Source of the DNA: an uncultured Bacilli bacterium
GTDB taxonomy: Bacteria > Bacillota_I > Bacilli_A > RF39 > UBA660
Reading direction: 5' to 3'
Length of the DNA: 64,000 nt
Assembly (NCBI GenBank): GCA_934096735.1
Contig: CAKOMS010000001.1
Location: 29,948-93,947, forward strand
Of this stretch, positions 962 to 58,162 are shown in pieces. The notes under the pieces are model-generated. The model did not search any database. It was not told where the DNA came from and saw only the letters and a program-made list of their open reading frames with translations. Within the stretch, counting starts at the first letter, position 1; every line of letters starts with the position of its first letter. Made by a program: the position numbers and the translations under genes.

Positions 962-1411
962 ATGAATTATTTTATTAATAGTAGTACTGTAGCGCTTTTA
1001 AAAGATGGAAAGAAAACAATAATATACGATGTTGAAAAGTCAGTAGTTATTAACAAAAGTATTAGAAGTATAATTGAATTTAATTGTAATTATTATGGAC
1101 ACTCGGTAAATGGAACTAAGAAAGCAATTAAGAAATTATTGAATATCAAATACAGAGTTCCAATAGTAGTATCTATAAGTAATAATTATACATTAATACC
1201 GGTAGGAAATATAAGAAATGATATGTGTTTGTTTTTAGTTACAAGTAAAATTATTGATTATGAAAAATGTAATGATTATCTTGAAATAAATTGTGTAAAT
1301 AATAATAAATTTAAAGTAAATTTTTCGATAAATAGTTTTGAAAAATTATTAATTAATTCGATTAGAATAAATAATTTATTAATTAGTAGAAAAAATAATA
1401 ATTATGTTTAA
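962..1411 (+). CDS. ComK-family protein (competence transcription factor-like)
   Basis: 149 aa; alignable by eye to B. subtilis ComK: NSSTVALL~NGATIAVL, IIEFNCNYYGHSVNGTKKA~IVDRSCRFFGSSYAGRKAG, KYRVPIVVSISNNYTLIPV~KPPIMVDPSNQIFLFPT, INSFEKLLINSIRI~ISYNSFENQVYRTAWL; good RBS (agggggag) 5 nt upstream. Confidence 0.55.
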   Translation: MNYFINSSTVALLKDGKKTIIYDVEKSVVINKSIRSIIEFNCNYYGHSVNGTKKAIKKLLNIKYRVPIVVSISNNYTLIPVGNIRNDMCLFLVTSKIIDYEKCNDYLEINCVNNNKFKVNFSINSFEKLLINSIRINNLLISRKNNNYV

Positions 1412-4534: not shown

Positions 4535-6967
4535 ATGCATCATGAGAGAGATAGATTGCAAGAAAATGATATAGTAAATGAAATTGAAACTTCTTTTATT
4601 GAATATTCTATGAGTGTTATAGTATCACGTGCTTTACCAGATCTAAGAGATGGTTTAAAACCTGTTCATAGAAGAATATTATGGAGTATGTATGAGTCTG
4701 GTTATACGCCTGATAAGCCACATAAGAAGTCAGCTCGTATAGTTGGAGATGTTATGGGTAAATATCATCCACACGGCGATTCTAGTATATATGAAGCGAT
4801 GGTAAGAATGGCACAAGACTTTAACTATACTATTCCACTTATTGATGGACATGGTAATTTTGGTAATATAGCTGGTGCTCCAGCTGCTGCTATGAGATAT
4901 ACTGAATCTAGATTATCTAAGATATCATTGGAATTACTTAGAGATATTAACAAAGATACTGTTAATTTTGGACCTAATTTTGATGAATCTGAAAGAGAAC
5001 CTGAGATATTACCATCAAGATTTCCAAATATATTAGTAAATGGAACAATGGGAATTGCTGTTGGTATGGCAACAAATATTCCTCCACATAATTTAGGAGA
5101 AGTTATTGATGGTTGTGTAGCTTATATAGATAATCCAGAGATTGATACTTTAGGATTAATGCAATATATAAAAGGACCAGATTTTCCTACTGGAGGTACT
5201 ATTTTAGGAAATAGTGGTATTAAAAAAGCTTATGAAACTGGTCGAGGTAGTATTACTATAAGAAGTAAGGCTACCATTGAAGAAAAAGATGGAAGGCATT
5301 ATATCATTGTTAATGAGGTTCCTTATGGAGTTAATACCTCAGAACTTAAGACTAAGGTAGCTGAGCTTGTTCACAATAAAGTTATTGATGGAATAGCAGA
5401 TTATCACACTGATTTAAAAAATGGTGTAAAAATAACTATTACTTTAAAGAAAGATGCTAATCCACAAGTTGTTTTAAATAATTTGTATAAACACACTCAA
5501 TTTCAAACAAGTTATAGTATAATACTATTAATGATTGATAATAAAGTTCCTAGAACTTTAGGTTTGAAAGATATTATTTCTAAATACATTAATTATCAAG
5601 AAGAAGTAATTATCAGAAGAACGAAATTTGAACTTGATAAAGCACTTAAAAAGGTACATATTTTAGAAGGTTATAAGATAGCTTTAGATAATATTGATGA
5701 TTTTATAAAAATTATTAAAGAATCTGAAACAGATTTAATTGCAAAGCAACAATTAATTAATAAATATTCTTTAACTGAAATTCAAGCGGATAGTATCTTA
5801 GAATTAAAATTAAGAAGATTAACTGGTCTTGAAAGAAATAAAATTGAAGAAGAATTAAAGGATTTATTACAAAAAATTGAAGAATATAAGGCTATATTAG
5901 CATCTAGAGAAAGAATTTTAAGTATTATTAAAGAGGAATTACTTGAAATTAAAGCAAAATATGATGTAGATAGAAGAACTAATATAGATATGACAGCAAT
6001 AGAATATATTGAAGATGAGTCACTTATTCCTGAAGAGGATGCAATGGTAGTTCTAACAAATAAAGGATATATTAAGAGAACAACTAATGATACTTTTAAG
6101 GTACAAAATAGAGGTGGTGTTGGAGTTAAAGGTGTAACAACAAATGATGAAGATTTTGTTGAACATTTAATTAATTTATCAACTCATGACTATTTGATGT
6201 TCTTTACAAATAAAGGAAAAGTATATCGTTTAAAAGGTTATGAAGTTCCTGAGTTTAGTAGACATTCAAAGGGATTGCCAATAATTAATTTACTTCAAAT
6301 AGATAAAGATGAAAGAATTAATTCAATGGTTAAAGTTACTAAGGAAGAAAAGGCAAAATATTTATTATTTGCGACGAAGAAAGGTATTGTTAAGAAAACC
6401 TTAATACAAGAATTTGACAGTATTAGATCATCTGGAAAAATATGTATTAATCTTTCAGAAAATGATGAGCTTATTGATGTTAAGAAAACATATGGAGATA
6501 GTTTAGTTCTTCTTGGAAATACTAATGGAAGAATGGTTAAATTTAACGAAAATGAAATTAGACCAATGGGAAGAACTGCTACTGGTGTTAAAGGTATTAA
6601 TTTAGACGGTGGCAAATGTATTTGTTGCGAAGTTGTTTCTGAAGAATCAATGATATTACTTGTTACAGAAAAAGGTTATGGAAAAAGGACTAAAGTAAGT
6701 GAATTTAGACAAACAAAACGTGGTAGCAAAGGCGTTCTTGCTTTAAATATTACTAATAAAAATGGTTCTTTAGTTGCTTCTAAAATTGTTGAAGAAGATA
6801 AAAACGCTATTATAATGAGTAATTCTGGTATAACTATTAAATTACCAGTAGATCAAATTTCAATTTTAGGTAGAGTTACTCAAGGTTTAAGATTAATTAA
6901 CCTTAAAGATAATCAGATTGTGGCAACAGTAAGTATTGTTGAAAAAATTGAAAATATTGAAGAATAA
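4535..6967 (+). CDS. gyrA: DNA gyrase subunit A
   Basis: 810 aa; AAMRYTE active-site Tyr motif; C-terminal beta-pinwheel repeats. Confidence 0.97.
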
Positions 6968-6975
6968 TTTTAAAA

Positions 6976-7004
6976 AAATATTTCCCGGGAAATATTTTTT
7001 TTGT
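6976..7004 (+). terminator. Rho-independent terminator of gyrA (stem is the 22-bp palindrome AAATATTTCCCGGGAAATATTT followed by T8); doubles as NBS-like copy a
   Basis: Perfect palindrome immediately after the gyrA stop, followed by tttttttt. Confidence 0.75.
6980..6993. promoter_or_regulatory. Noc-binding-site consensus ATTTCCCGGGAAAT (NBS copy a)
   Basis: Exact 14-bp match to the B. subtilis NBS consensus; 1 of 4 CCCGGG palindromes in a 27% GC window. Confidence 0.55.
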
Positions 7005-7074
7005 GTAATATTGAGTTAAGCTATATATTTTTAATAATTAAAAAAAAATATATATAATTGTAATTGTTAGAATT

Positions 7075-7088
7075 ATTTCCCGGGAAAT
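7075..7088. promoter_or_regulatory. NBS consensus ATTTCCCGGGAAAT (copy b)
   Basis: Exact 14-bp palindrome; extended palindrome TATTTCCCGGGAAATA 7074-7089. Confidence 0.55.
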
Positions 7089-7146
7089 ATTTCCGGTACT
7101 CATAAGGTCCTTAATTTTTAGAATGTTCGTTTTTTGTTCGTGTAAT

Positions 7147-7160
7147 ATTTCCCGGGAAAT
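7147..7160. promoter_or_regulatory. NBS consensus ATTTCCCGGGAAAT (copy c)
   Basis: Exact 14-bp palindrome inside the 20-bp palindrome 7144-7163; flanked by the 8-bp inverted repeat tccggtac(7092-7099)/gtaccgga(7180-7187). Confidence 0.55.
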
Positions 7161-7263
7161 ATTGTCCGATAACTATAATGTACCGGATTAAAAACATAGT
7201 CGAGTTACTAATACATTTAGCTTGTAGTATATTTATCAATATGCTCTATTTTTTAAATTGTTG

Positions 7264-7281
7264 ATGTTTCACGTGAAACAT
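7264..7281. promoter_or_regulatory. parS centromere site (ParB/Spo0J binding), 18-bp palindrome ATGTTTCACGTGAAACAT, copy 1
   Basis: Core TGTTTCACGTGAAACA equals the consensus bacterial parS. Confidence 0.8.
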
Positions 7282-7456
7282 TATGTTGAAAACAATTAAT
7301 TTAGAATTTAATTATTCTACTGCTTTTGCTTTTCAGATTTTAATTGTTGGTTTTTTGTGAAGTTATTGTTATAGAATATACTATTTTTATAAAAAATAAT
7401 TTTTTATATATAATGGTTATTTATAATTTGATTAATTTTTTTTAATATTAGATTTT

Positions 7457-7474
7457 ATGTTTCACGTGAAACAT
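7457..7474. promoter_or_regulatory. parS site copy 2 (perfect)
   Basis: ATGTTTCACGTGAAACAT followed by TGTGTTGATAAC. Confidence 0.8.
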
Positions 7475-7681
7475 TGTGTTGATAACTTTTGAATTGATCT
7501 ATATAACAATTTATTTATATAATATTTTGTTCGTTAATATTTAGCTTATATTTTTGAAACAATATATTTATTATTATATAATATTAAATTAAAAATATAC
7601 ATCAAGTACTTTTTTTATTATTAAATTTACTTATATCATTAATTCAGGTTGATTATTTAGTTTTTTTATAAATTATTTTTA

Positions 7682-7699
7682 ATGTTTCACGTGAAACAT
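7682..7699. promoter_or_regulatory. parS site copy 3 (perfect)
   Basis: ATGTTTCACGTGAAACAT followed by ATGTTGAAAAC. Confidence 0.8.
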
Positions 7700-7795
7700 A
7701 TGTTGAAAACTATTTTATGAATAATAACAAAAATCATATTTTTATTATTATTGTATTTAATTTTAAATTTGTTTTTTATATTTTAATTTACTTCA

Positions 7796-7813
7796 ATGTT
7801 TCACGTGAAACAT
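7796..7813. promoter_or_regulatory. parS site copy 4 (perfect)
   Basis: ATGTTTCACGTGAAACAT followed by TGTTGATAAC. Confidence 0.8.
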
Positions 7814-7955
7814 TGTTGATAACTTTTGAATTGATTTTTAAATTTACTTATTTATTGTTATATATTGTTTTGTTTGTTAACATTTAGCTTTTCTTTTTTA
7901 GTTTTTTTATTTATAATGACCTATTATTATGCATTTTTTATTAAAAATAATTTTA

Positions 7956-7973
7956 ATGTTTCACGTGAAACAT
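7956..7973. promoter_or_regulatory. parS site copy 5 (perfect)
   Basis: ATGTTTCACGTGAAACAT followed by TGTGTTAATAAC. Confidence 0.8.
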
Positions 7974-8059
7974 TGTGTTAATAACTAATTTTTTAAAATT
8001 TTAAATTTTTCATTTCTAAATAAAGGTATTTGTCCGGTGTGTTATTTATTACCGGAAAT

Positions 8060-8073
8060 ATTTCCCGGGAAAT
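8060..8073. promoter_or_regulatory. NBS consensus ATTTCCCGGGAAAT (copy d)
   Basis: Exact 14-bp palindrome; flanked by the inverted repeat tgtccg(8031-8036)/cggaca(8098-8103). Confidence 0.55.
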
Positions 8074-8106
8074 AATTGTCCAGTGTTCTTTAAACAGCGG
8101 ACAGGT

Positions 8107-8124
8107 ATGTTTCACGTGTAACAT
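8107..8124. promoter_or_regulatory. parS site copy 6 (one mismatch: ATGTTTCACGTGtAACAT)
   Basis: Single A->T change breaks the dyad symmetry. Confidence 0.6.
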
Positions 8125-8146
8125 ATATAACTTATATTAAAAACGT

Positions 8147-8175
8147 TTGCTATAGTGTCAAAAATGTGATAATAT
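8147..8175 (+). promoter_or_regulatory. Sigma-A type promoter for the SRP RNA (-35 TTGCTA 8147-8152, 17-nt spacer, extended -10 TGaTAATAT 8167-8175)
   Basis: Hexamer match and spacing; transcript start predicted near 8182. Confidence 0.5.
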
Positions 8176-8181
8176 TTAGAT

Positions 8182-8262
8182 GCACAACAAATATATCGTA
8201 AACTGGTCAGATCAGGAATGAAGCAGCCACATCGGTCACTATTTGTGTGTGCTTTTTATTTT
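8182..8262 (+). ncRNA. ffs: Signal recognition particle RNA (small 4.5S-type SRP RNA, about 80 nt)
   Basis: cuGGUCAGAUCAGGAAUGAAGCAGCCac nearly identical to the conserved SRP RNA domain IV (E. coli GGUCAGGUCCGGAAGGAAGCAGCC) with a GGAA tetraloop; flanks can form a long imperfect hairpin (gcacaacaaatat.../...ctatttgtgtgtgc) ending in a T-run; tadA-scr-dnaX are also neighbours in B. subtilis. Confidence 0.6.
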
Positions 8263-8274
8263 ATGGAGAAATTT

Positions 8275-13083: not shown

Positions 13084-13795
13084 CGAAGTATTAAATGACC
13101 TGTTTGATTACATTGGTTATAAAATATATCAAATTAAAGGTAATTTTAAATTTTCTTTGGATTCAATATTACTTGCAGAATACACTAAGGTTAAGAGAAA
13201 TACAAAATTTATTTTAGATATGTGTACTGGTAATGCTCCAATACCTCTTATTCTTACTACGAAAACTAATGCTTCTATTGATGCAGTTGAAATTCAAGAA
13301 AATATAGCGAAATTAGCTACAAAATCAGTTATTTATAACAATAAACAAAATCAAATTAATATAATTAATGCTGATATTAATGATATTGATAATTATATTT
13401 TTAATAAAAAGTATGATATTATTACATGTAATCCGCCATTTTTTAAAGTAGATAATTATGATTTTACTAATAAATATGAAGGACTTAGTTTAGCAAGACA
13501 TGAAATAAAAATTGATTTAGAAAGAATTTTTATGATTGCTTCTAATCATTTGAATGATAAAGGTGAATTTTACATGGTTCATAGAGTTGCTCGGTTAGAT
13601 GAAATTATTATAATGGCTGATAAATATAATTTAAGAGTTAAGAATATTACATTAGTAAAAACTAAAGAAAGTGAAAGACCAAGTATATTACTTATTAGAT
13701 GTGTTAAAAGTTCAAAATATGGAATAAAAATTCAAAACACTCTTAATATTGAAAATCTTAAAACATATCAAAATTTATTTAAGGAGGAGTTATGA
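13067..13795 (+). CDS. SAM-dependent methyltransferase, tRNA1(Val) (adenine37-N6)-methyltransferase family (YabB-like)
   Basis: Rossmann MTase motifs (DMCTGNAPIPL, ITCNPPFF). Confidence 0.7.
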   Translation: MMSNSNEVLNDLFDYIGYKIYQIKGNFKFSLDSILLAEYTKVKRNTKFILDMCTGNAPIPLILTTKTNASIDAVEIQENIAKLATKSVIYNNKQNQINIINADINDIDNYIFNKKYDIITCNPPFFKVDNYDFTNKYEGLSLARHEIKIDLERIFMIASNHLNDKGEFYMVHRVARLDEIIIMADKYNLRVKNITLVKTKESERPSILLIRCVKSSKYGIKIQNTLNIENLKTYQNLFKEEL

Positions 13796-18099: not shown

Positions 18100-18308
18100 T
18101 ATACTTGTAGTTAACGAAGAATAAGTGTGGTAGATTAATAAGTTAAATAGAGAATTAGTGGTTGGTGGAAACTAATTAATAAGTTAATTGAGTATGAACT
18201 TAGGAGTTAAATCGGTGAGAATCGTTATAATCTAAAGTGTATGAATAAATTCATAAATTAAGGTGGTACCGCGGAAAATATTTCGTCCTTTGTTTATGAA
18301 TTTTTTAT
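18100..18308 (+). promoter_or_regulatory. T-box riboswitch leader, methionine-specific (specifier AUG-A at 18194-18197), with terminator/antiterminator
   Basis: Conserved T-box sequence AATTAAGGTGGTACCGCGG at 18256-18274; Stem I features AGAGA and distal loop GGTGGAAA; terminator helix aaattcataaat(18247-18258)/atttatgaattt(18292-18303) plus T-run; metG is downstream. Confidence 0.75.
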
Positions 18309-18320
18309 TTGGAGGTTTTT

Positions 18321-48042: not shown

Positions 48043-48828
48043 ATGGCAAAAGTTATTTCATTAGTAAATCAAAAGGGTGGAGTTGGAAAGACTACAACAA
48101 GTATAAATTTAGCTGCTGCGTTAGGAAAAGAAAATAAAAGAGTTTTAATTATAGATTTAGATCCTCAAAGTAATGCAACAACTGGGCTTGGATTAAATTC
48201 AAATGATTTTAATCATGATATTTATGAAGTAGTTACTGGAGCTTGTGATATAGAACAAGCTATAAAAAAAACTAAATTTCAGAATTTAGCAATTATTCCT
48301 TCAACTTTAAATTTAGCAGGTGTAGATGTTGAATTTGTAAAAAGAATGTTAGAGGATAAAGATTTTAGACAAAATGATCAATTAAAGAATGCGATTAATA
48401 GAATTAGAGATGCATTTGATTATATTATTATTGATTGTCAACCTTCACTTGGACTTGGTACAATGAATGCATTAGTTGCAAGTGATTCGGTTATTATTCC
48501 TGTTCAATGTGAATTTTTTGCACTTGAAGGAATTACACAATTATTAAATTCAATTATAATGGTTCAATCTAGTATGAATCCTACTTTAAGAATTGAGGGT
48601 GTTTTACTTACTATGTTAGATGGTAGAACTAATATTGGACTTGAAGTAATTGAGGAAATTAGAAAATATTTTAAAGATAAAGTTTTTAATACAATTATCC
48701 CAAGACTTGTAAGACTTGTTGAAGCACCATCACATGGTAAACCAATTAATGAGTATGATCCTACTAGTCGTGCTACTGAAGCGTATCACAATTTAGCAAA
48801 GGAAGTGATTGAGAGAAATGGAAACTAA
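48043..48828 (+). CDS. parA: Chromosome partitioning ATPase ParA/Soj
   Basis: Deviant Walker A KGGVGKTT; 261 aa. Confidence 0.93.
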   Translation: MAKVISLVNQKGGVGKTTTSINLAAALGKENKRVLIIDLDPQSNATTGLGLNSNDFNHDIYEVVTGACDIEQAIKKTKFQNLAIIPSTLNLAGVDVEFVKRMLEDKDFRQNDQLKNAINRIRDAFDYIIIDCQPSLGLGTMNALVASDSVIIPVQCEFFALEGITQLLNSIIMVQSSMNPTLRIEGVLLTMLDGRTNIGLEVIEEIRKYFKDKVFNTIIPRLVRLVEAPSHGKPINEYDPTSRATEAYHNLAKEVIERNGN

Positions 48829-49705
48829 AAAGAAGGCTTTAGGTAAAGGATTAGAGCAATTATTTGCTAATAATGTTATTGATTTCGATAATTTTGAAAA
48901 AGAGATAGTAACTGAAGCAAAAAAAGATAATGGAATTGCTATGATTAGAATAGCTGATATTAGAAGTAATCCATATCAACCAAGAAAATCATTTAATGAA
49001 GATACTTTGAATGAACTTGCACAATCTATAAAAGAGTATGGACTTGTACAACCTATTATTGTTAAAAAGAGTATTAAAGGTTATGAGTTAGTAGCTGGCG
49101 AAAGAAGATGTAAAGCGTCTAGAATTGCCGGACTTACTGAAATACCTGCTATAATTAAAGATTTCACTGATGATGAAATGATGGAACTTGCTCTTATTGA
49201 AAATATACAAAGAGAAGATTTAAATTCTATTGATGAAGCTAAAAGTGTAATGAATATTATTAAACTTAAAGGTTATACTCAAGAAGAGTTTGCATTAAAA
49301 TTTGGTAAAAGTAGAACTTATGTTACTAATTTATTAGGTCTTTTAAATTTACCTAATGATGTACAGGAATTAGTTATTTTAAAAAAGATTAGTCCATCTC
49401 ATGCTAGATTGTTAAGTAAACTTGATGATCCTTTAGAAATTAATAGACTTGCTAATCGTATTATGTTAGAAAAACTAAATGTAAGAGATTTAGAAGATAT
49501 TGTTAATAATGTAGAGGTTGTTAAAAGAAAACCATTAGCTTATACTCATACTGATCCCAAATATCGTATTTATGAAAATGTAATTAGTGATAAAGTTGGT
49601 AATAAAGTTAAAGTTAAGAAAAATAAAATTGAAATTTCTTTTGATTCATTAAAAGATTTAGAAAGAATTATGGATATTTTGAATATATCTATTGGAGAAG
49701 ATTAA
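48809..49705 (+). CDS. parB: Chromosome partitioning protein ParB/Spo0J (CTPase, parS-binding)
   Basis: ParB box GERRCKAS, HTH GKSRTYVTNLL; overlaps parA by 20 nt. Confidence 0.93.
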   Translation: MREMETKKKALGKGLEQLFANNVIDFDNFEKEIVTEAKKDNGIAMIRIADIRSNPYQPRKSFNEDTLNELAQSIKEYGLVQPIIVKKSIKGYELVAGERRCKASRIAGLTEIPAIIKDFTDDEMMELALIENIQREDLNSIDEAKSVMNIIKLKGYTQEEFALKFGKSRTYVTNLLGLLNLPNDVQELVILKKISPSHARLLSKLDDPLEINRLANRIMLEKLNVRDLEDIVNNVEVVKRKPLAYTHTDPKYRIYENVISDKVGNKVKVKKNKIEISFDSLKDLERIMDILNISIGED

Positions 49706-49901
49706 CATGGATAAATCATTTAATTTAGATGATGTTGTTGTGATGAGAAAACCTCACGCTTGTGGAACAAATTTATGGACAATAACTAGAATGGGTGTTG
49801 ATGTTAAGATTAAATGTAATTCATGTGGAAGAGAAATTATGATGGATAGATTAGAGTTTACCAGAAAATTAAAAAAGGTGATTAATGATGAGAAAAAATA
49901 A
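49692..49901 (+). CDS. DUF951-family small protein (YyzM-like, CxxC...CxxC)
   Basis: 69 aa with HACG...CNSCG; a gene of this family sits near parB in Bacillus. Confidence 0.5.
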   Translation: MEKINMDKSFNLDDVVVMRKPHACGTNLWTITRMGVDVKIKCNSCGREIMMDRLEFTRKLKKVINDEKK

Positions 49902-51426
49902 AAAAATTAGAGAACATTTGCATCCGATAATGGTGTATGTTCTTTTGATACTTGGAACTATATTTCTTAGTGGATTTTTATATTTATTAGATACACAAGC
50001 TACATATTATAGTGTTAATCCAATAACATATAGTATTACTCCAAAAACTGAAGTTGTTGAATCTTTACTAAGTTTGAGTGGACTTAAATATATTTTTACT
50101 ACTACTGTATCTAATTTTGCAAATTTTACAGTTTTATCTAACTTAATTATTATATTAATGGGTATTAGTATATTAGATAAAAGTGGATTTTTACAAACGG
50201 CAATAACTCTTACAACTAAAAAACTTAGAAAGAAGGCAGTTACATTTTTATTTGTATTAGTTTGTTTACTTAGTAGTTTATTTGGTGATTTATCTTATTT
50301 GGTATTCATTCCACTAGGTGCATATTTATTTTATTATGGAAGAAGAAACCCAGCAATCGGAATTATTGCCTCTTTTGCAGCTTTATCTTGTGGAAGTGCA
50401 CTTAATATATTCTTTACTAGTAGTGATTCTGAATTACTTAGTTATACAATACTTGCTAGTCAGACTTTAGATTCAACTTATAATATTGGAACATCAGCAT
50501 TTTTTCTTATAATGCTTGTAGCAGTTGTGTTGGTTGCATTTATAATAACAAACGTTACCGAAAATATTATTGCTAAAAAATTACCTAAATATGAGTTTTC
50601 TGAAACTGAACTTATTGAAGATATAGTAACAAAAGATGAACAAAAGGGTATGATGTATGCTTTGACTGCTGCTTTTGTTTATTTAATTATATTTATTTAT
50701 AATATTATACCAGGGTTACCACTTAGTGGAGCATTACTTGATAATAGTCAAATTTTATATATTGATAAGTTATTTAGTGTTAATTCATTCTTTACTAATG
50801 GTTTTGTATTTATAGTTACTATGTTATTTATTATTCTTGGATTATTTTATGGTATTGGTTCTAAATCAATAAAGACTCATAAAGATTTTTGCAATTATTT
50901 AGGACATAGTTTAGATGGTATTGGGAATATTTTAGTAATGATTTTTTTAGCATCAACTTTTATTAGTGTTTTTAAGGAAACTAATATTGGTAATGTTTTG
51001 GTAGCATATTTTGGCAATTTAATAAGTAACTCTAATTTTACCGGATTATCTTTAATTGTTTTAATATTTGTACTAGTTTTTATTGCATCAATATTTTTGC
51101 CATCAAGTAGTTTAAAATGGTTCTTATTATCTGGTACTATTGTTCCACTTTGTATGAATACTGGAATTAGTCCAGAGTTTACTCAAATTATATATAGATT
51201 TGCAGAAACTTCTTCACTTAATATAACACCACTTTTAGCATACTTTATTGTATATTTGAGTTTTTTGGAAAAATTTAATCAAAGTGAAGATAAAATTAGA
51301 TTAAAAGATTCAATTAAATATCAAATTCCATATACTGCTATAATATCTTTAGCATTATTAGCATTATTAATTATTTGGTATATAATTGGATTGCCACTTG
51401 GAATAGATAGTATTCCAACATTATAG
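49885..51426 (+). CDS. AbgT-family transporter (p-aminobenzoyl-glutamate/antimetabolite exporter family)
   Basis: LSGLKYIFTTTVSNFANFTVLSNLIIILMGISILDKSGF resembles the AbgT N-terminal signature; 513 aa polytopic. Confidence 0.6.
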   Translation: MMRKNKKIREHLHPIMVYVLLILGTIFLSGFLYLLDTQATYYSVNPITYSITPKTEVVESLLSLSGLKYIFTTTVSNFANFTVLSNLIIILMGISILDKSGFLQTAITLTTKKLRKKAVTFLFVLVCLLSSLFGDLSYLVFIPLGAYLFYYGRRNPAIGIIASFAALSCGSALNIFFTSSDSELLSYTILASQTLDSTYNIGTSAFFLIMLVAVVLVAFIITNVTENIIAKKLPKYEFSETELIEDIVTKDEQKGMMYALTAAFVYLIIFIYNIIPGLPLSGALLDNSQILYIDKLFSVNSFFTNGFVFIVTMLFIILGLFYGIGSKSIKTHKDFCNYLGHSLDGIGNILVMIFLASTFISVFKETNIGNVLVAYFGNLISNSNFTGLSLIVLIFVLVFIASIFLPSSSLKWFLLSGTIVPLCMNTGISPEFTQIIYRFAETSSLNITPLLAYFIVYLSFLEKFNQSEDKIRLKDSIKYQIPYTAIISLALLALLIIWYIIGLPLGIDSIPTL

Positions 51427-51435
51427 GGAGGTTTT

Positions 51436-52536
51436 ATGAGTTTAAAAGCTGGAATTGTTGGGCTTCCAAATGTAGGAAAGTCAACATTATTTAATGCAAT
51501 TACAAAAAAACAAATTTTGATAGCTAATTATCCTTTTGCTACTATTGAGCCAAATGTTGGGGTTGTTACAGTACCTGATGGAAGACTAGATTATTTATGT
51601 AATTTATATAATCCTAAAAGTGTTGTTCCTACTACATTTGAGTTCATTGATATAGCGGGACTTGTTAGTGGTGCTAGTAAAGGAGAGGGATTAGGTAATA
51701 AATTTTTATCTCATATAAGAGAAGTTGATGCTATTGTTGAAGTTATTAGATGTTTTGATAATCCTGGTATTACTCATGTAAGTGGTAGTACTGATCCTAT
51801 TAGAGATATGGAGATTATTAATACAGAGTTAATACTTGCTGATTTAGAAATTATTGAAAATAGACTTGATAAAATAGAAAAGAAGGCTGTAACTACAAAA
51901 GATAAAAATGCAATGGCTGAAGTAAATGTTTTAAGAAAGTGTTTAGATTCACTTAATAAAAATGTTCCTTTAAGATTGCTTAATTTTTCAGAAGATGAAT
52001 TTGAGTTACTTAAAAATTTTAGTTTTATTACCTTAAAACCGATTATTTATGTTGCAAATGTATCTGAAGATGATGTTGCTACTGGTGATAATAAGTATTC
52101 TCTAACCTTAAAAGAAAGAGCTAGCGAAGAACATGCTGGTGTAGTTGTAATGTGCGCTAAACTTGAAAGTGAATTAGCAAGCTTAAGTGATGAAGAAAAA
52201 ACTATGTTTTTACAAGAAATTGGTATTAGAAATAGTGGACTTGATAAATTAATATTTGCAACTTATGATTTATTGGGACTTGGAACATTCTTTACAAGTG
52301 GATCTGATGAGTGTAGAGCATGGACTTTTAAAAAAGGAATGAAGGCACCAGATTGTGCAGGAATTATTCATACAGATTTTAAAAAGGGATTTATAAAAGC
52401 TGAAGTTATGTCATTTAAAGATTTAGAAGAAGCTGGAAGTGAATTAAAAGTTAAAGAAAATGGTAAACTTAGACTTGAAGGAAAAGATTATATTATGCAA
52501 GATGGAGATATTTGTTATTTTAGGTTTAATGTTTAG
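51436..52536 (+). CDS. ychF: Ribosome-binding ATPase YchF (Obg-family GTPase)
   Basis: GLPNVGKSTLFNA G1, TGS-like C-terminus. Confidence 0.95.
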   Translation: MSLKAGIVGLPNVGKSTLFNAITKKQILIANYPFATIEPNVGVVTVPDGRLDYLCNLYNPKSVVPTTFEFIDIAGLVSGASKGEGLGNKFLSHIREVDAIVEVIRCFDNPGITHVSGSTDPIRDMEIINTELILADLEIIENRLDKIEKKAVTTKDKNAMAEVNVLRKCLDSLNKNVPLRLLNFSEDEFELLKNFSFITLKPIIYVANVSEDDVATGDNKYSLTLKERASEEHAGVVVMCAKLESELASLSDEEKTMFLQEIGIRNSGLDKLIFATYDLLGLGTFFTSGSDECRAWTFKKGMKAPDCAGIIHTDFKKGFIKAEVMSFKDLEEAGSELKVKENGKLRLEGKDYIMQDGDICYFRFNV

Positions 52537-52545
52537 AAGGTTTAT

Positions 52546-53484
52546 ATGAATAGTTATGAAGAATTAGTTGAAAGAATAAATGAAATTATAAATGAAGATC
52601 AAAATGTTTTTGAAAATGATGTGTCACTTAGAGGTGAATTTACTTTAATAAATCATTTTAGAATAAGAAATAGTCATGTTGATGAATTTAAAAGATTACT
52701 TGATATTGAATATATGTGGCATGATATGGTAACTAATAGAAGTGATTATTTTAATAAAAATAAAGAATTAATTATGATATGTCATGATATGATTAAAGCT
52801 CAAGATGATAGAATGGATTTATATACTGAGTTATATAATATACTTTCTAATACTGCTGGAAAAAGCATTACAGAATTAAGTTGTTTTTTAGGATATTATG
52901 TTAGTAATGATTTTTTAGATAAATTTAAAGAAATAACTTCAAGTTTGAAAGTTGGACCTTTTATTCGAATTAATAGTTTGGGTAGTGATGAAACTAAAAA
53001 TAGAGTTGATAAATTATTACAAGATAATAAGGAACAATATAAGAGAATTAAAAATAATTTAAATGTTAATAACAGAGAATGCGAATTTCAAGGAAATAAA
53101 TTTAAGACTATATTAGAGTTGGGTATATCTTCTAGTCTTACATTATCAATGGTTCAAGAGTTAAGAAGTGTTTATAATAAAGAAGATTTTGAAGAATTAA
53201 TTAATGAACTAGAAAAATGGCAATTATTTACTAGTGATGAACTTGATAGTTTAAAAGAATATAATTTAAAAGATACTGAAACAATTGATACATTAGATAA
53301 GTTAATATCGTTCTTTGCTACTAGGGAAGATTTAGATATTCAAGGATTAAAAGTATTAATTCCTACTATTGGGGAAGGAAATTATAATGAATTAATCGAT
53401 GGATTATTTAAGGTTGGTAAGATATCTTGGGAGGATTATAAAAGTATTCTTTTTGAACTTTTAGATGAAGATTTTAGTAGATAA
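52546..53484 (+). CDS. Hypothetical acidic cytoplasmic protein (no recognisable family)
   Basis: 312-aa ORF with RBS; lineage-specific. Confidence 0.45.
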   Translation: MNSYEELVERINEIINEDQNVFENDVSLRGEFTLINHFRIRNSHVDEFKRLLDIEYMWHDMVTNRSDYFNKNKELIMICHDMIKAQDDRMDLYTELYNILSNTAGKSITELSCFLGYYVSNDFLDKFKEITSSLKVGPFIRINSLGSDETKNRVDKLLQDNKEQYKRIKNNLNVNNRECEFQGNKFKTILELGISSSLTLSMVQELRSVYNKEDFEELINELEKWQLFTSDELDSLKEYNLKDTETIDTLDKLISFFATREDLDIQGLKVLIPTIGEGNYNELIDGLFKVGKISWEDYKSILFELLDEDFSR

Positions 53485-53497
53485 AAAAATCATAGAT

Positions 53498-54883
53498 TTA
53501 ATATTTTCTATGATTTTTCTTTTTGCTAAATAATTTTATGAGTAAAAGAATAATTATTCCAATTCCAACGATTAAATACGGCATATAATTATTATTTTTT
53601 ATTGTATCCTTTTTAATTGAGTTATCTTTTATTGTTGTAGTATTATCTTTTTCATCTTTTGGTTCTTCTTTAATTTGATCTTTATAATATGTGATGTTTT
53701 CAAGCATATCGTTTTTATTTCTGTCTTCTCCTACTAAAGATCTATATAATCCAAATTTTAATGGTGAATATGTTTTTATTTCAGTTGCTTTTTTATAATT
53801 ATTATTACTTCCATTTATCCATTTTGTAAACCATGTCCATTGTTGACTATGATGTTCTTTGTATCCTAATTTTGATACTTCGTATGCTGTAAGACCGTTA
53901 AAATAATCTAGATGTGTATCATAATCCATTGTTATTTCATTTTCTTTATATAAATGTAAGTATAATTTTGGAGTATCCCAAACTCCGTATTTTTCATAGG
54001 AAGATGGGTGTATATCTTTATTATTTGTTTGTTCAATTGCTTTTTTTAGTACATATGTATTTAAAATATGTTGACCATGTGAATATTCTCCTAACTCATC
54101 ATGTCCTACTACAACTTGTGGTTTAAATCTTCTAATCATTTCAATTTCAAAATTTAATGCATCTTCTTCAGATAAATTTGCTTTTTTTAAATTACTTAGT
54201 GCACCTTCTAGAGATTTTGAGTATGCATCTGGTACAATGCCTATTATAGGATAATTTCTTACTCCTACAACATATAATCCGTGTAATTGTTCATGTAATC
54301 TTTTAGGATTATCATAATGATTTGTAAAATACACTACTTGTACGTAGGCTTCTCTTGCTACATAAGTTGGAAGTAGCCCTAGAAAAAATAACTGTTCATC
54401 ATCGCTGTGTGTAGAAAATAAAAGTATATCCGCTTTTTCACATGGCTTATTCCATATTTCAACTACACTTGGTAATTCGCCTTTACTTAAAATGTAAATT
54501 TCTCCAATTTTAACGTCTTCTTTATATGATAATGTAATTTCTTTTGAGGGAGATATTTTTTCTTCAATGTTTATGTATTCGTGTAAAAAATTATTTTCTC
54601 CAATTATATTTGTTTTATTATCATTTTTTATTGTACCTTCTTTACTAGCCATTTCATAAATAATATATAGACCATATATATCTTCATTTGATGTTATTTT
54701 TATGCTGTCACTTGATTTTATTGTAATGTAGGTGTTTTCATTATTATCAGATATTTTTTCACTTATTTTGTTGCCATTTAAAGTAATTGATGATTCTTTT
54801 GTAATGTCTTTGCAGTTAACTTTTAGTGGTATTATAAGTAATAATGTTATTAAAATATAATAAGTTTTTTTCATATTTATCAC
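53498..54883 (-). CDS. Extracytoplasmic PIG-L/LmbE-family N-acetylglucosaminyl deacetylase with N-terminal signal peptide, extra N-domain and C-terminal TM anchor
   Basis: LmbE motif ILLFSTHSDDE plus downstream His residues; N-terminal signal (LLLIIPLKVNC); C-terminal Lys/Thr-rich linker plus TM (YLIVGIGIIILLLIKLF). Confidence 0.7.
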   Translation of the reverse strand: MINMKKTYYILITLLLIIPLKVNCKDITKESSITLNGNKISEKISDNNENTYITIKSSDSIKITSNEDIYGLYIIYEMASKEGTIKNDNKTNIIGENNFLHEYINIEEKISPSKEITLSYKEDVKIGEIYILSKGELPSVVEIWNKPCEKADILLFSTHSDDEQLFFLGLLPTYVAREAYVQVVYFTNHYDNPKRLHEQLHGLYVVGVRNYPIIGIVPDAYSKSLEGALSNLKKANLSEEDALNFEIEMIRRFKPQVVVGHDELGEYSHGQHILNTYVLKKAIEQTNNKDIHPSSYEKYGVWDTPKLYLHLYKENEITMDYDTHLDYFNGLTAYEVSKLGYKEHHSQQWTWFTKWINGSNNNYKKATEIKTYSPLKFGLYRSLVGEDRNKNDMLENITYYKDQIKEEPKDEKDNTTTIKDNSIKKDTIKNNNYMPYLIVGIGIIILLLIKLFSKKKNHRKY

Positions 54884-54940
54884 TCTTTCTAATATAGATT
54901 AAGTATATCAAAAAATAGTGAATTTGGCACTAGAAAATGA

Positions 54941-54969
54941 TTTACAATTAATATATTTTTTGATATACT
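54941..54969 (+). promoter_or_regulatory. rpsF operon promoter (TTTACA-17-TGaTATACT); 15-bp perfect inverted repeat GTATATCAAAAAATA(54903-54917)/TATTTTTTGATATAC(54954-54968) overlaps the -10
   Basis: Hexamers, extended -10, and inverted repeat read directly. Confidence 0.6.
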
Positions 54970-55035
54970 AATTTACGAGTAATTTATTACTCCTTGCTTC
55001 AAAAGAAGCCGGATAGACCATAAGGAGGTGTAAAA

Positions 55036-55326
55036 GTGACTAAATATGAAATAATGTTTATTGTTAAAGCAACTTTAGAAGAAAATGTTATTCAAAATAT
55101 CACTAAAGATGTACAAAAATTAATTAGTGATAATAAAGGAAAAGTTGTTGATTTCAAAGAAATGGGTAGAAAAAAACTTGCTTATCCAATAAACAAGGAA
55201 GTTAGTGGTTTTTATTATTTAATGAATGTTGAAGCTACTAAAGAAACTATTAGTGAATTTGATCGTAAACTTAGAATTAATGAAAATGTTATTAGACATT
55301 TAATTTTAAACAAAGAAAGTGAGTAA
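55036..55326 (+). CDS. rpsF: 30S ribosomal protein S6 (GTG start)
   Basis: Conserved sequence; RBS aaggagg. Confidence 0.95.
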   Translation: MTKYEIMFIVKATLEENVIQNITKDVQKLISDNKGKVVDFKEMGRKKLAYPINKEVSGFYYLMNVEATKETISEFDRKLRINENVIRHLILNKESE

Positions 55327-55329
55327 TAT

Positions 55330-55794
55330 ATGAATAAAGTAATATTAATTGGAAGATTAACTAGAGATCCAGAACTTAGAATGGCTGGAGGTTCTGCAGT
55401 ATGTAATTTTAGTATTGCTGCTGAAAGTAATTATACAAATAAAAATGGAGAAAGAGCTGTAGAGTTTATTAATTGTAGTGCTTGGGGAAGAACTGCTGAT
55501 AATATTTCTAAATATTGTACTAAAGGTTCTTTATTAAGCGTAGAAGGTAGAATTAGAAATAGTAGTTATACTGCTCAAGATGGTTCAAAAAGATATACTA
55601 CTGAAGTTGTTGCTGAAGAAGTTAGATTCTTAGGTTCTAGAAATGCTTCTAGTAGTAATGCATCATTTAATACTAATGACGTTCCTACTAATGATGAAAT
55701 GCCGTTGCCTACTGAAACTGCAGATTTATCTGAAGATCCATTTAAAAGTTTTTCCGATGAGATTACTTTAACTAGTGATGATTTACCATTCTAA
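55330..55794 (+). CDS. ssb: Single-stranded DNA-binding protein
   Basis: OB fold; acidic C-terminal tail DDLPF. Confidence 0.95.
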   Translation: MNKVILIGRLTRDPELRMAGGSAVCNFSIAAESNYTNKNGERAVEFINCSAWGRTADNISKYCTKGSLLSVEGRIRNSSYTAQDGSKRYTTEVVAEEVRFLGSRNASSSNASFNTNDVPTNDEMPLPTETADLSEDPFKSFSDEITLTSDDLPF

Positions 55795-55812
55795 TAAAAG
55801 GAGGAATAATAA

Positions 55813-56028
55813 ATGGCAGAATTTTATCGTAAGAAAAAGAAAATATGTCAAATGTGTGCTGGTAAAAGCGTTGATTATAAAGATGTAATGATTATTAATA
55901 AGTATATTAATGAAAAGGGTAAAATATTACCAAGAAGAGTTACTGGTGCTTGTGCTAAACATCAAAGACATATTGCTGAACAAATTAAATATTCAAGATT
56001 TATGGCTTTAATACCATATGTTAAATAG
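55813..56028 (+). CDS. rpsR: 30S ribosomal protein S18
   Basis: Conserved sequence. Confidence 0.95.
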   Translation: MAEFYRKKKKICQMCAGKSVDYKDVMIINKYINEKGKILPRRVTGACAKHQRHIAEQIKYSRFMALIPYVK

Positions 56029-56057
56029 AAATCCAAAATTTTTGGATTTTTTTTTGA
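56029..56057 (+). terminator. Rho-independent terminator after rpsR (aaatccaaaa/ttttggattt plus T-run)
   Basis: Perfect 10-bp stem plus T-run. Confidence 0.75.
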
Positions 56058-56114
56058 TATTTTAAGAGGAATTTTAATAGTAACTTATATATATATAATT
56101 GAGGAGTTAAAAAT

Positions 56115-56321
56115 ATGAATAAACAAATGCTTAATTATATTTATATAGAGATTGTTAAAAATAATAAGATTACTGAATCTGAACTTGCAAAGATGTTTAA
56201 TGTTACAGAGAGAACTATTAGAAGATATTTAAAAATATTAAAAGATAATAATATTATTTATTTGGAGGGCTATGGAAAAGAAAAGAAATGGGTTATACAT
56301 AATAAGTTAAATATGTTATAA
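56115..56321 (+). CDS. Small stand-alone HTH protein (DeoR/HTH_11-like N-domain only)
   Basis: ITESELAKMFNVTERTIRRYLKILKDNNII is a typical HTH. Confidence 0.55.
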   Translation: MNKQMLNYIYIEIVKNNKITESELAKMFNVTERTIRRYLKILKDNNIIYLEGYGKEKKWVIHNKLNML

Positions 56322-56345
56322 TAATTATACATTTAGGAGGTTGTT

Positions 56346-56786
56346 ATGAAAGTAATTTTACTAAAAGATGTTAAGGGAAAAGGTAAAAAAGATGATATAA
56401 TAGATGTTAGTGATGGTTATGGAAATAATTATTTAATCAAAAATAAATTGGGTATTTTATATACTAAAGGAAGTAAAAAAGTATTAGATAATGAACTTAA
56501 AATTAGAGAAGATAAAGAAAATGAACTTGTGAGTGAACTTTCTAAGATTAAAGATGCTTTAGAAAATAAAGAGATTGTTTTTAAGGTTAAAACTGGAGCT
56601 TCTGACAAAGTATTTGGAAATATTTCTAAATCACAAATTGTTGATGAAATTAAAAAAATGGGCTTTAATATAGATAAAAAATGTATTAAGACTGATGGAA
56701 ATATAGATACTTTAGGAGTACACAAAGTACTTATAAGTCTTCATAAGAAAGTAGAGTTTTTTATAAATGTAGTGTTAAATAAGTAG
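56346..56786 (+). CDS. rplI: 50S ribosomal protein L9
   Basis: MKVILLKDVKGKGKKDDIIDVSDGYGNNYLI. Confidence 0.95.
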   Translation: MKVILLKDVKGKGKKDDIIDVSDGYGNNYLIKNKLGILYTKGSKKVLDNELKIREDKENELVSELSKIKDALENKEIVFKVKTGASDKVFGNISKSQIVDEIKKMGFNIDKKCIKTDGNIDTLGVHKVLISLHKKVEFFINVVLNK

Positions 56787-56794
56787 GTGATAAT

Positions 56795-58162
56795 ATGGAT
56801 TTTAATGGTGTTAGTAATACAAGAGTAATGCCTAAAAATTTAGAAGCAGAAATGAGTGTTTTAGGAGTATGCTTTATAGATAATAATTTAGTAGATAATG
56901 TATGTGAAGAATTAAATAGAGATATGTTTTTTGATAAAAGAAATCAATATATATTTGATGCTATTGTAGAATTACATAATAATAATATACCTATTGATTC
57001 TAGTATGATTAGAGAGGAATTAGATAAAAAGAAAAAATTAAATGAAATTGGTGGTACTTCTTATATAGGAGAAGTTATTGATTCTGTAATTACTACTGCT
57101 AATTTATCTTTTTATATGAACATTTTAAAAGAATATTATACTAGAAGAAATTTAATTAATACTGCAACTGAAATTGTTACAAATGCTTATGAAGAAGAAA
57201 ATTTAACAACTCTATTAGATGATGCTGAAAAAAATATACTTAATATAGTAAGAGTGAGAACTGTTAAAGACTTTGTACCTATTCATGAGATTCTTAGAAA
57301 AGCTCAAGCTAAATTAGAAGAACTTGCTAAAACTAAAAAAATTATTACAGGACTTGAGACAGGATTTTTTGATTTTGATAAGATTACTACTGGATTTCAA
57401 CCTGGTGAACTCATAATTCTTGCTGCTAGACCTGGTATGGGTAAAACAGCGCTTGCACTTAATATGGCTACATATGCGGCAAGAACTACTGAAAAAGCAG
57501 TTGCTATTTTTAACCTAGAAATGCCTGCTGAACAATTAGTTAATAGAATAATTAGTGCTGAGGGTGGAATTGATTCATATAAATTACAAACTGGTTCTAT
57601 GCAAGATAGGGATTGGAAAAGATATAATGAAGCCATGAATGAACTTGCAGAAACTAATCTTTACCTAGAAGATAATTCTGGTGTAACTATTGCAGAAATT
57701 AGAGCTAAATGTAGAAGACTTGCAAATATGCCAAAGGGTCTTGGTCTTGTTGTTATTGATTATTTACAACTTGTTACAAGTGGAAATAAAAGAATAGAAT
57801 CTAGACAAGTAGAGGTATCTGAAATATCTAGAAGTTTAAAAACTATGGCTCTAGAACTTGGAGTCCCAGTTCTTGCATTATCACAACTTTCAAGAAGTGC
57901 TGAAAAAAGAGAAAGTAATATGCCAATGCTTGCAGATTTAAGAGAATCAGGTTCAATTGAACAAGATGCTGATATGGTACTTTTTATAAATAGAAAAGAT
58001 TATTATGAAGCAAGAAAAGATCAAAAAGAAAAAATAGTTCCTGCTGAACTTGTTATTGCAAAACATAGAAAAGGTAGTTTAGGTACAATACCTTTAATGT
58101 TTGAACTTAACATGGGAGCTTTTAGAAATGTATTAAATGAAAATAAGGAAGATAATGAATGA
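56795..58162 (+). CDS. dnaB: Replicative DNA helicase (DnaB family; DnaC in B. subtilis nomenclature)
   Basis: Walker A ARPGMGKTALALN, RecA-like fold; rplI-helicase synteny. Confidence 0.95.
   Translation: MDFNGVSNTRVMPKNLEAEMSVLGVCFIDNNLVDNVCEELNRDMFFDKRNQYIFDAIVELHNNNIPIDSSMIREELDKKKKLNEIGGTSYIGEVIDSVITTANLSFYMNILKEYYTRRNLINTATEIVTNAYEEENLTTLLDDAEKNILNIVRVRTVKDFVPIHEILRKAQAKLEELAKTKKIITGLETGFFDFDKITTGFQPGELIILAARPGMGKTALALNMATYAARTTEKAVAIFNLEMPAEQLVNRIISAEGGIDSYKLQTGSMQDRDWKRYNEAMNELAETNLYLEDNSGVTIAEIRAKCRRLANMPKGLGLVVIDYLQLVTSGNKRIESRQVEVSEISRSLKTMALELGVPVLALSQLSRSAEKRESNMPMLADLRESGSIEQDADMVLFINRKDYYEARKDQKEKIVPAELVIAKHRKGSLGTIPLMFELNMGAFRNVLNENKEDNE

Follow-up and report, generated by a model that had tools for sequence, protein, structure and literature searches.

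A conserved cluster of parS and Noc-binding sites between gyrA and ffs as the probable chromosomal centromere of an uncultured Bacilli bacterium

Introduction

What is the role of a short non-coding spacer near the replication origin that holds binding sites for both the partition protein ParB and its paralogue Noc? In the textbook division of labor, ParB acts at a few origin-proximal parS sites, and Noc acts at sites scattered over the whole chromosome and is tethered to the membrane. The question is raised by the 1.2-kb spacer between gyrA and ffs, the gene for the small signal recognition particle RNA, in a stretch of 64,000 nucleotides (contig CAKOMS010000001.1, assembly GCA_934096735.1; hereafter the window) from an uncultured Bacilli bacterium. 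An initial annotation of this DNA had described the spacer as an island of ten palindromes, and had proposed that it forms a single high-affinity center for ParB nucleation and SMC loading that is also tethered to the membrane. Here, we show that the sites are real and that an array of parS is found at the same junction in almost all related species. We argue that the island is very probably the chromosomal centromere, a high-density ParB loading site near oriC. Beyond the original description, we found that each perfect parS has a DnaA-box-like partner, that the Noc encoded here is atypical, and that the island is a feature of the whole clade.

Results

The gyrA-ffs spacer (6970-8173) contains five perfect parS, a sixth parS with one mismatch and four perfect Noc-binding sites (NBS), which confirms the ten palindromes as matches to the ParB and Noc consensus sequences that are confined to this spacer. 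The parS sequence TGTTTCACGTGAAACA is perfect at 7265..7280 (parS1), 7458..7473 (parS2), 7683..7698 (parS3), 7797..7812 (parS4) and 7957..7972 (parS5), and the one-mismatch copy TGTTTCACGTGTAACA (parS6) is located at 8108..8123, 51 bp upstream of ffs. When up to 3 mismatches were allowed, these six were the only matches in the window (0.28 expected), a number that was reached in none of 100 shuffled sequences. The 16-bp palindrome of the parS consensus TGTTNCACGTGNAACA, which was used as the mark of a centromere, is thus present in the island. The NBS core ATTTCCCGGGAAAT was found perfect at 6980, 7075, 7147 and 8060, with no other match in the window at up to 2 mismatches (0.13 expected), and all four NBS are perfect over the full 16-bp TATTTCCCGGGAAATA (NBS1, 6979..6994; NBS2, 7074..7089; NBS3, 7146..7161; NBS4, 8059..8074). 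Along the island the sites follow the order N N N P P P P P N P (N, NBS; P, parS), and the six parS are packed into 0.86 kb of one non-coding spacer at irregular distances of 193, 225, 114, 160 and 151 bp. The longest open reading frame in the interval has 56 codons, in agreement with the earlier statement that none exceeds 60. Site scans of this contig covered 86 kb, i.e., the window together with 14 kb upstream and 8 kb downstream. The upstream 14 kb contained no further parS or NBS, and the downstream 8 kb contained no further site except one parS-like match with 2 mismatches.

To place the island in its clade, we used a GyrA-based scan of species-representative genomes, which yielded 80 loci from related uncultured Bacilli with GyrA identities of 68-84% (locus labels begin with L). 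Two long-read, complete 1.5-Mb chromosomes (OZ006970.1 and OZ007022.1) are in this set, and both show arrays. Across 81 loci, 360 parS-like sites fell inside the gyrA-dnaX spacer (99 kb in total) versus 3 in the remaining 1.3 Mb. Counts for complete spacers rest on 57 related species in which the whole gyrA-dnaX spacer is available; at least one parS was found in 56 of these and at least four in 38. The phylogenetic profile that had been suggested as a check therefore showed that the island is not absent from relatives; 56 of 57 species have an array of parS at this gyrA-ffs/dnaX junction. In the exception (L081, 12409-15170), the 2.7 kb between gyrA and ffs contained no parS-like site within 1 mismatch. 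NBS were present in 23 of the 57 complete spacers, at a density inside the spacer 17.6 times that outside. While relatives also have scattered NBS (63 in the 1.3 Mb outside the spacer), all four NBS in the 86 kb of this contig are within the island.

The arrays differ in architecture. Some contain parS only, in up to 17 copies (L007, L009, L020, L022, L032, L036 and L051), and among these are tandem arrays with periods of ~36-53 bp (L009, L022 and L036) or ~154 bp (L007). Others combine parS with DnaA boxes (L010-L014, L016, L021, L023, L033 and L043), or have NBS bracketing a block of parS (the window, L003, L005, L006, L035, L040 and L060). In a fourth class, NBS and parS alternate strictly, one of each per tandem unit, with units of 64 bp x 7.8 (L063), 84 bp x 5.8 (L067), 126 bp x 5.6 (L069) and 126 bp x 3.7 (L077). 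Head-to-tail units, each with a ParB site, were found in the four alternating arrays and in L007, L009, L022 and L036, but not in the window. A blastn comparison of the island with those of relatives returned hundreds of spurious AT-rich matches; divergence was judged from the number, order and spacing of sites. Because 56 of 57 spacers carry parS, while the number and spacing of sites differ between species, we conclude that the island is a conserved yet fast-evolving feature of the clade.

Within the species, unit turnover is ongoing, as shown by a strain variant (L002) whose GyrA is identical: a ~250-bp segment is replaced (13150-13300, versus window 7700-7955), and five rather than six parS are present. 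In addition, the contigs of 24 of 81 loci (e.g., L022, L024, L027 and L030) end 90-1700 bp after gyrA, inside repeat arrays, and centromere arrays break short-read assemblies right beside oriC in this clade. A ribosomal RNA operon was considered as the cause of these breaks and set aside: none was found between gyrA and ffs in six relatives scanned, none of which is a relative with a broken contig. In six relatives, ffs directly follows the array.

The contig also encodes proteins that match both kinds of site. A soj-type ATPase gene, parA (48043..48828, plus strand), for which all NCBIfam ParA/MinD hits were below the curated cut-offs, and parB (48809..49705, plus strand) are located ~41 kb from the island. 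The product of parB, the predicted parS-binding protein, carries the motifs IRSNPYQPR and GKSR and has R-L-N-S at the four positions that specify parS or NBS; the residue that corresponds to Caulobacter R173 is R, and the Q/R signature of Noc is absent. Its best solved relative is B. subtilis Spo0J (6sdk), at 180 bits versus 149 for Noc. The two genes belong to a block, parA-parB-abgT-ychF...rpsF-ssb-rpsR-rplI-dnaB (window 48043-58162, also in L087), which lies 41-52 kb to the right of oriC. In B. subtilis, the same block is to the left of oriC beside noc; its position here on the right therefore separates parAB from the noc-type gene.

A second gene of the ParB family is located directly after rsmG on the same contig, ~15 kb from the island (L083 14663-15652, or about -9364..-8375 relative to the window, minus strand), and encodes a protein of 329 amino acids. 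Its recognition region, GLSQSAISNKLRLLSL...KISERHARSL, provides Q173, K179, S184 and R201, and its best solved relatives are Noc structures (193 bits, versus 175 for Spo0J). According to previous work (Jalal 2020, PMC7383237), a protein that has Q173 and R201 needs only one lysine, at 179 or 184, to prefer NBS. Since the specificity residues match, and since relatives keep NBS at fixed coding positions (e.g., recF), the NBS are likely to be bound by this Noc-type paralogue. Such perfect NBS at shared coding positions (the recF region, dnaX and a methyltransferase gene) were observed in L016-L018, L026, L028, L033 and L034, at about -4685 from the end of gyrA and also at about +2.3 kb and +6 kb; the species of the window does not have them.

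B. subtilis Noc binds the membrane via an N-terminal amphipathic helix of 10 residues (PMC8429893). In the paralogue encoded here, only 16 residues precede PNRFQPR, the reading frame has a stop 10 codons farther upstream, and the protein aligns from residues 26-27 of the Noc chains; therefore, the extension that carries the membrane helix is absent, and the membrane tethering suggested initially is not supported for this protein. All 120 of its closest homologues (P0121-P0240) have the Q-K-x-R signature and an equally short N-terminus, as well as a strictly conserved PNKFFN[YF]LED in a variable acidic linker before the C-terminal dimerization domain. This peptide may be a relocated membrane-binding or partner-binding element. 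By its sequence, the Noc-type paralogue is not a canonical Noc.

Downstream of every perfect parS, at a distance of 1-3 nt and in constant orientation, there is one of the 10-mers TGTTGAAAAC, TGTTGATAAC or TGTTAATAAC; parS6 has no such partner. The DnaA-box-like motifs, all assigned to the minus strand, are located at 7284..7293 (TGTTGAAAAC on the plus strand, which is TTTTCAACA on the minus strand; 3 nt from parS1), 7477..7486 (TGTTGATAAC, i.e., TTATCAACA, with one mismatch to the consensus; 3 nt from parS2), 7701..7710 (TGTTGAAAAC; 2 nt from parS3), 7814..7823 (TGTTGATAAC, one mismatch; 1 nt from parS4) and 7976..7985 (TGTTAATAAC; 3 nt from parS5). The parS copies differ in their upstream flanks but retain the box on the other side, at a spacer that ranges from 1 to 3 nt. 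The 10-mers form a family, TGTTRAWAAC, which is the reverse complement of TTATCAACA, TTTTCAACA or TTATTAACA and has 1-2 mismatches to the DnaA-box consensus TTATCCACA; TGTTGATAA and TGTTGAAAA are predicted targets of the DnaA DNA-binding domain. Fifteen copies of the family are present on both strands of 78 kb, five of them in the island and four in the two spacers that flank dnaA. No perfect DnaA box was found in the 78 kb of this genome, and the degenerate variant is evidently what its oriC uses. The reading of the island motifs with two mismatches as DnaA boxes relies on the use of such degenerate variants in the oriC of this 25%-GC genome.

In less AT-rich relatives, canonical boxes are located beside parS, as TTATCCACAA|TGTTTCACG (L016 and L017), TGTGGATAACTA|parS (L013) and parS|TTATCCACA (L045). 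Across species, a box with at most 1 mismatch is present within 16 nt of 47 parS sites, which belong to 25 of 68 species. Control positions within those islands gave 5.3 +/- 2.3 pairs in 4.8 +/- 2.0 species, and over 5000 simulations the counts never exceeded 14 pairs and 12 species. In 14 species, we found the geometry parS-N1-TGTGGATAA, which is that of parS4 in the window. The density of perfect boxes was 0.47 per kb for islands, as against 0.07 elsewhere and 2.3-2.8 for oriC spacers. Thus, the pairing of parS with DnaA boxes is real and recurrent, although not universal; that DnaA itself binds beside parS is a prediction toward which we lean slightly. Apart from the boxes paired with parS, L010-L014 have clusters of 3-9 boxes (at most 1 mismatch) at the end of the spacer near ffs/dnaX, and no NBS in 22 kb.

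The island is not the replication origin. The contig, which is 113 kb long and comes from a human-gut metagenome (ENA ERZ4560852, Hadza NODE_236), has 25% G+C and uses the standard genetic code, and its GC skew is strongly positive throughout the window. The cumulative skew minimum and the switch in gene orientation coincide at the rpmH|dnaA spacer, at about -2.2 kb relative to the window, and the skew is positive on both sides of the island without an inflection there. Therefore, the island is in the right replichore, ~9 kb to the right of oriC, and a second origin at this site was rejected on the basis of the skew and of the lack of adjacency to dnaA. According to Pfam and Rfam, the gene order is dnaN (partial), a ComK-like open reading frame, recF, gyrB, gyrA, the island, ffs, tadA, dnaX, ybaB and recR, preceded upstream of the window by dnaA and then, on the other strand, by rpmH, rnpA, yidC, jag and mnmE. 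The order observed here fits the co-linearity with the B. subtilis map (dnaA-dnaN-recF-gyrBA...tadA-scr-dnaX) noted in the initial annotation; in the present genome ffs precedes tadA.

On the left, the island is bounded by gyrA (4535..6967, plus strand; Pfam DNA_topoisoIV and six GyrA C-terminal repeats) and on the right by ffs (8174..8264, plus strand; Rfam RF00169, 53.8 bits). The suggestion that NBS1 doubles as the gyrA terminator has weak support: NBS1 is within a hairpin flanked by A7/T8, 13 bp long and A/U-rich, that is followed by U8 and might serve as a weak terminator (-8.5 kcal/mol, z -1.6), but a terminator scan found none. A promoter scan was uninformative (16 sites versus 15.9 expected). 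NBS4 is at the center of an imperfect palindrome of 83 nt (8026..8108) that folds at -26.8 kcal/mol (z -3.3). In the closest relatives (L003 4084-4123 and L005 3557-3596), an NBS is inside a perfect 40-bp palindrome, atgtaaaccaat-NBS-attggtttacat, and in the window further inverted repeats, TCCGrT..ACCGGA, flank NBS3 and NBS4. A segment of ~340 bp is duplicated (families D5 and D7). Tandem-repeat analysis (TRF) of the window island returned only trivial A/T repeats and no array spanning the sites; together with the irregular spacing, this indicates that the array in the window is not a tandem repeat of the plasmid type. We also rejected an array of clustered regularly interspaced short palindromic repeats, as the repeats are the palindromic parS sites and their spacing is irregular.

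Several other features of the region were observed. The ComK-family open reading frame (149 amino acids; Pfam, 59 bits) between dnaN and recF (window 962-1411) keeps its position in strain variants and in L041, and a T-box leader (Rfam, 103 bits; 18108-18293) precedes an open reading frame at 18309. Genes near the origin include those for SpoIIR (L083 20483-20612), GerQ (L087 14087-14512) and a class A penicillin-binding protein (L083 15674-17632). Judging from its genes, the organism, whose relatives have chromosomes of ~1.5 Mb, is walled and probably forms spores; it is not a Mollicute, despite the database labels of some relatives.

Discussion

The exact sites, the cognate ParA/ParB pair and the near-universal conservation at one locus lead us to regard the island, with high confidence, as a chromosomal centromere. 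A high-density ParB nucleation center ~9 kb from oriC is the best reading of the data, because the sites are real and confined to the spacer, because the array is at the same junction in 56 of 57 species, and because matching ParA, ParB and Noc-type genes are present. The term "super-centromere" that accompanied the original proposal is a label and not a mechanism, and one parS suffices in C. glutamicum (PMC7083940). The fuller proposal, that the gyrA-ffs spacer is the main chromosomal partition site, with a Noc-type protein recruited by NBS and with coupling to DnaA, we consider likely.

In the mechanism that we infer, ParB would load at the six parS as CTP (cytidine triphosphate)-dependent clamps and spread, and thereby build one dense partition complex that would be moved by ParA and would probably load SMC. 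DnaA would sit against the ParB loading sites at the five perfect parS, where its motif is 1-3 bp away. Because the 9-bp box and the 16-bp parS are only 1-3 bp apart, the two proteins would have to touch or exclude each other, so that initiator status could be coupled to centromere loading. Such an arrangement would tie the availability of the initiator, and control of DnaA by the Soj-type ParA, to the centromere, either because DnaA is titrated near oriC or because it and ParB exclude each other, or cooperate, on the same 26-28 bp. There are several precedents. DnaA binds to DnaA boxes at the Caulobacter centromere, as cited in PMC6399470 (Mera 2014). DnaA-box clusters near oriC restrain initiation jointly with Spo0J/Soj in B. 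subtilis (PMC3245932), Noc restrains initiation in S. aureus (PMC5540599), and Spo0J and Noc cooperate in B. subtilis (PMC6852036). The four NBS around the parS block would recruit the Noc-type paralogue encoded beside rsmG, which might form a second family of clamps that load where the ParB domain ends. This protein could be a boundary, a co-organizer or an anchor of the origin (like RacA, RocS and RicO). Tethering through the canonical helix is excluded, and PNKFFNxLED is a candidate replacement.

Several observations weigh against this interpretation. The benefit of a dense array is unproven, because C. glutamicum has ten parS over 35 kb and a single one is sufficient for chromosome organization (PMC7083940). 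The site scan covers 86 kb of a genome of perhaps 1.5 Mb, and other clusters of parS or NBS may exist elsewhere. The parS-plus-box units could stem in part from duplication, as in the ~340-bp duplicated segment, and among the five boxes of the island only two match TTATCCACA with one mismatch, the other three having two. Box pairing in only 25 of 68 species and NBS in only 23 of 57 spacers indicate that neither is obligatory for centromere function. Finally, the Noc-type paralogue scored 278.1 bits, below the NCBIfam cut-off for Noc of 315 (TIGR04285), and it does not have the N-terminal extension that bears the membrane-targeting helix.

An alternative is that the island is a plain multi-copy parS centromere, in which NBS and DnaA-box-like motifs are bystanders without a role in the function of the locus: hitch-hikers of unit duplication, scattered NBS that happen to fall in the sole sizeable non-coding spacer, or chance near-matches in AT-rich DNA. 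The parS-only arrays of many relatives (L007, L009, L020, L022, L032, L036 and L051), the absence of box pairing in 43 of 68 species, the two mismatches of three of the five island boxes and the NBS that relatives have in coding DNA all agree with this idea. Evidence against it includes the 17.6-fold density of NBS in spacers, the strict 1:1 NBS/parS tandem units of four species with different unit lengths, and the lack of NBS outside the island in the 86 kb of this contig. Likewise, box pairing is ~nine-fold above that at control positions in the same islands, the 1-nt geometry is preferred in 14 species, and the box side is kept with its 1-3-nt spacer where the upstream flanks of parS have diverged. 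We consider the bystander explanation unlikely. Another possibility is that the NBS are mainly boundary elements, at which the Noc-type protein would confine sliding ParB clamps and keep them off the gyrA and ffs units. DNA-bound roadblocks do stop ParB clamps, an N..P..N order recurs in L001, L003, L005, L006, L035, L040 and L060, and NBS are within longer palindromes in the window and in L003 and L005. Yet in the alternating arrays NBS flank every parS at 25-60 bp, which would leave the clamps hardly any room. Moreover, the island is devoid of NBS in many species, and parS6 of the window is outside the right-hand NBS; a role mainly as boundaries seems improbable to us.

The boxes themselves raise a further alternative, namely that the island primarily controls replication, either as a sink for DnaA (like datA or the DnaA-box clusters) or as a second part of oriC, and that its parS are of secondary importance. 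In its favor, 0.7 kb of the island contains five copies of the DnaA-box-like motif that is also present in oriC, perfect boxes are ~6-fold enriched in islands across 44 species, box clusters are present at the ffs-proximal end of the island in several relatives, and B. subtilis offers a precedent (PMC3245932). The skew, which has its minimum at rpmH|dnaA and no inflection at the island, the box density 5-6 times below that of true oriC spacers, and the fact that the near-universal component is parS (56 of 57 spacers) rather than boxes make this alternative very unlikely. The conservation data contradict a reading of the island as non-functional repeats, as the decayed remnant of a mobile element or as an artifact of assembly, and we give it a negligible probability. 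Assembly is indeed difficult here, as 24 of 81 related contigs end inside the spacer, and the strain variant differs by one unit; but the same sequence was assembled independently in several samples, arrays are present in both long-read complete chromosomes, and exact 16-bp consensus palindromes are kept across species with 68-84% GyrA identity while the number and spacing of sites differ.

A centromere of this kind resembles known systems and departs from each of them. It shares with the Spo0J/Soj-parS system of B. subtilis the identical 16-bp parS consensus, proximity to the origin, a ParA with a Spo0J-like ParB and, presumably, SMC loading. B. subtilis has about ten parS dispersed over hundreds of kb, mostly inside genes, whereas here six are found in 0.86 kb of one spacer and parAB is 41 kb from the sites and apart from noc. 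The 16-bp NBS is likewise identical to that of the Noc-NBS systems of B. subtilis and S. aureus, and the ParB paralogue beside rsmG with Q173/K179/R201 and its relatedness to Noc structures are also shared. The differences are that the NBS are concentrated at the centromere instead of scattered (within 86 kb), and that the paralogue has a long acidic linker, the conserved PNKFFNxLED and a score below the NCBIfam Noc cut-off. Many ParB sites in one place are also found in iterated plasmid centromeres such as F sopC, which are tandem arrays of ParB sites like those of the relatives with true tandem arrays (periods of 36-154 bp). C. glutamicum (PMC7083940) is similar in this respect, but, compared with its ten sites over 35 kb, ParB sites here are ~40 times denser and are interleaved with those for a paralogous clamp.

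As in the Caulobacter centromere (Mera 2014, as cited in PMC6399470), DnaA boxes are located in the parS region, outside the origin and near oriC; unlike that case, the present one concerns another phylum and a 1:1 pairing of sequence motifs at 0-7 nt in 25 species. The DnaA-box clusters of B. subtilis (Okumura et al., PMC3245932) are also near but outside oriC, in loci separate from parS, whereas the boxes here are physically fused to parS. For the Noc-type protein, RacA, RocS and RicO (bioRxiv 10.64898/2026.03.06.710092) offer an analogy, in that specific sites near oriC recruit a protein that positions origins. The RicO family differs in having a MerR-like helix-turn-helix with a coiled coil and sites over ~700 kb, while the protein here is related to ParB and its membrane element is only a candidate. 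Thus, parS/ParB, NBS/Noc and DnaA boxes are each known ingredients, and clustered chromosomal parS are known from C. glutamicum (PMC7083940). In our literature search, we did not find described a plasmid-like density of parS in a single Firmicute intergenic spacer, NBS interleaved with parS, or parS/DnaA-box pairs in Firmicutes.

NBS differs from parS at only two positions per half-site and could therefore have arisen in place from duplicated parS units. A more speculative idea, of which we are doubtful, is that the clade preserves a centromere-bound form of Noc, perhaps near the state just after Noc and ParB split, in a three-protein hub of ParB, the Noc-like protein and DnaA. If true, this one locus would link replication initiation to segregation, and possibly also to division or the anchoring of the origin.

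In this clade of gut Bacilli, sites for ParB and Noc are neighbors, some species combine the two in one repeat unit, and the Noc has no membrane helix. Together, these features suggest that Noc-type proteins can work at the centromere. The locus offers a concrete, testable scenario for the evolution of Noc/NBS from ParB/parS. The parS/DnaA-box pairs would extend to Firmicutes a link between DnaA and the centromere that has so far been known mainly from Caulobacter, and the 26-28-bp units of parS and box are defined substrates with which the interplay of ParB and DnaA may be studied in vitro.

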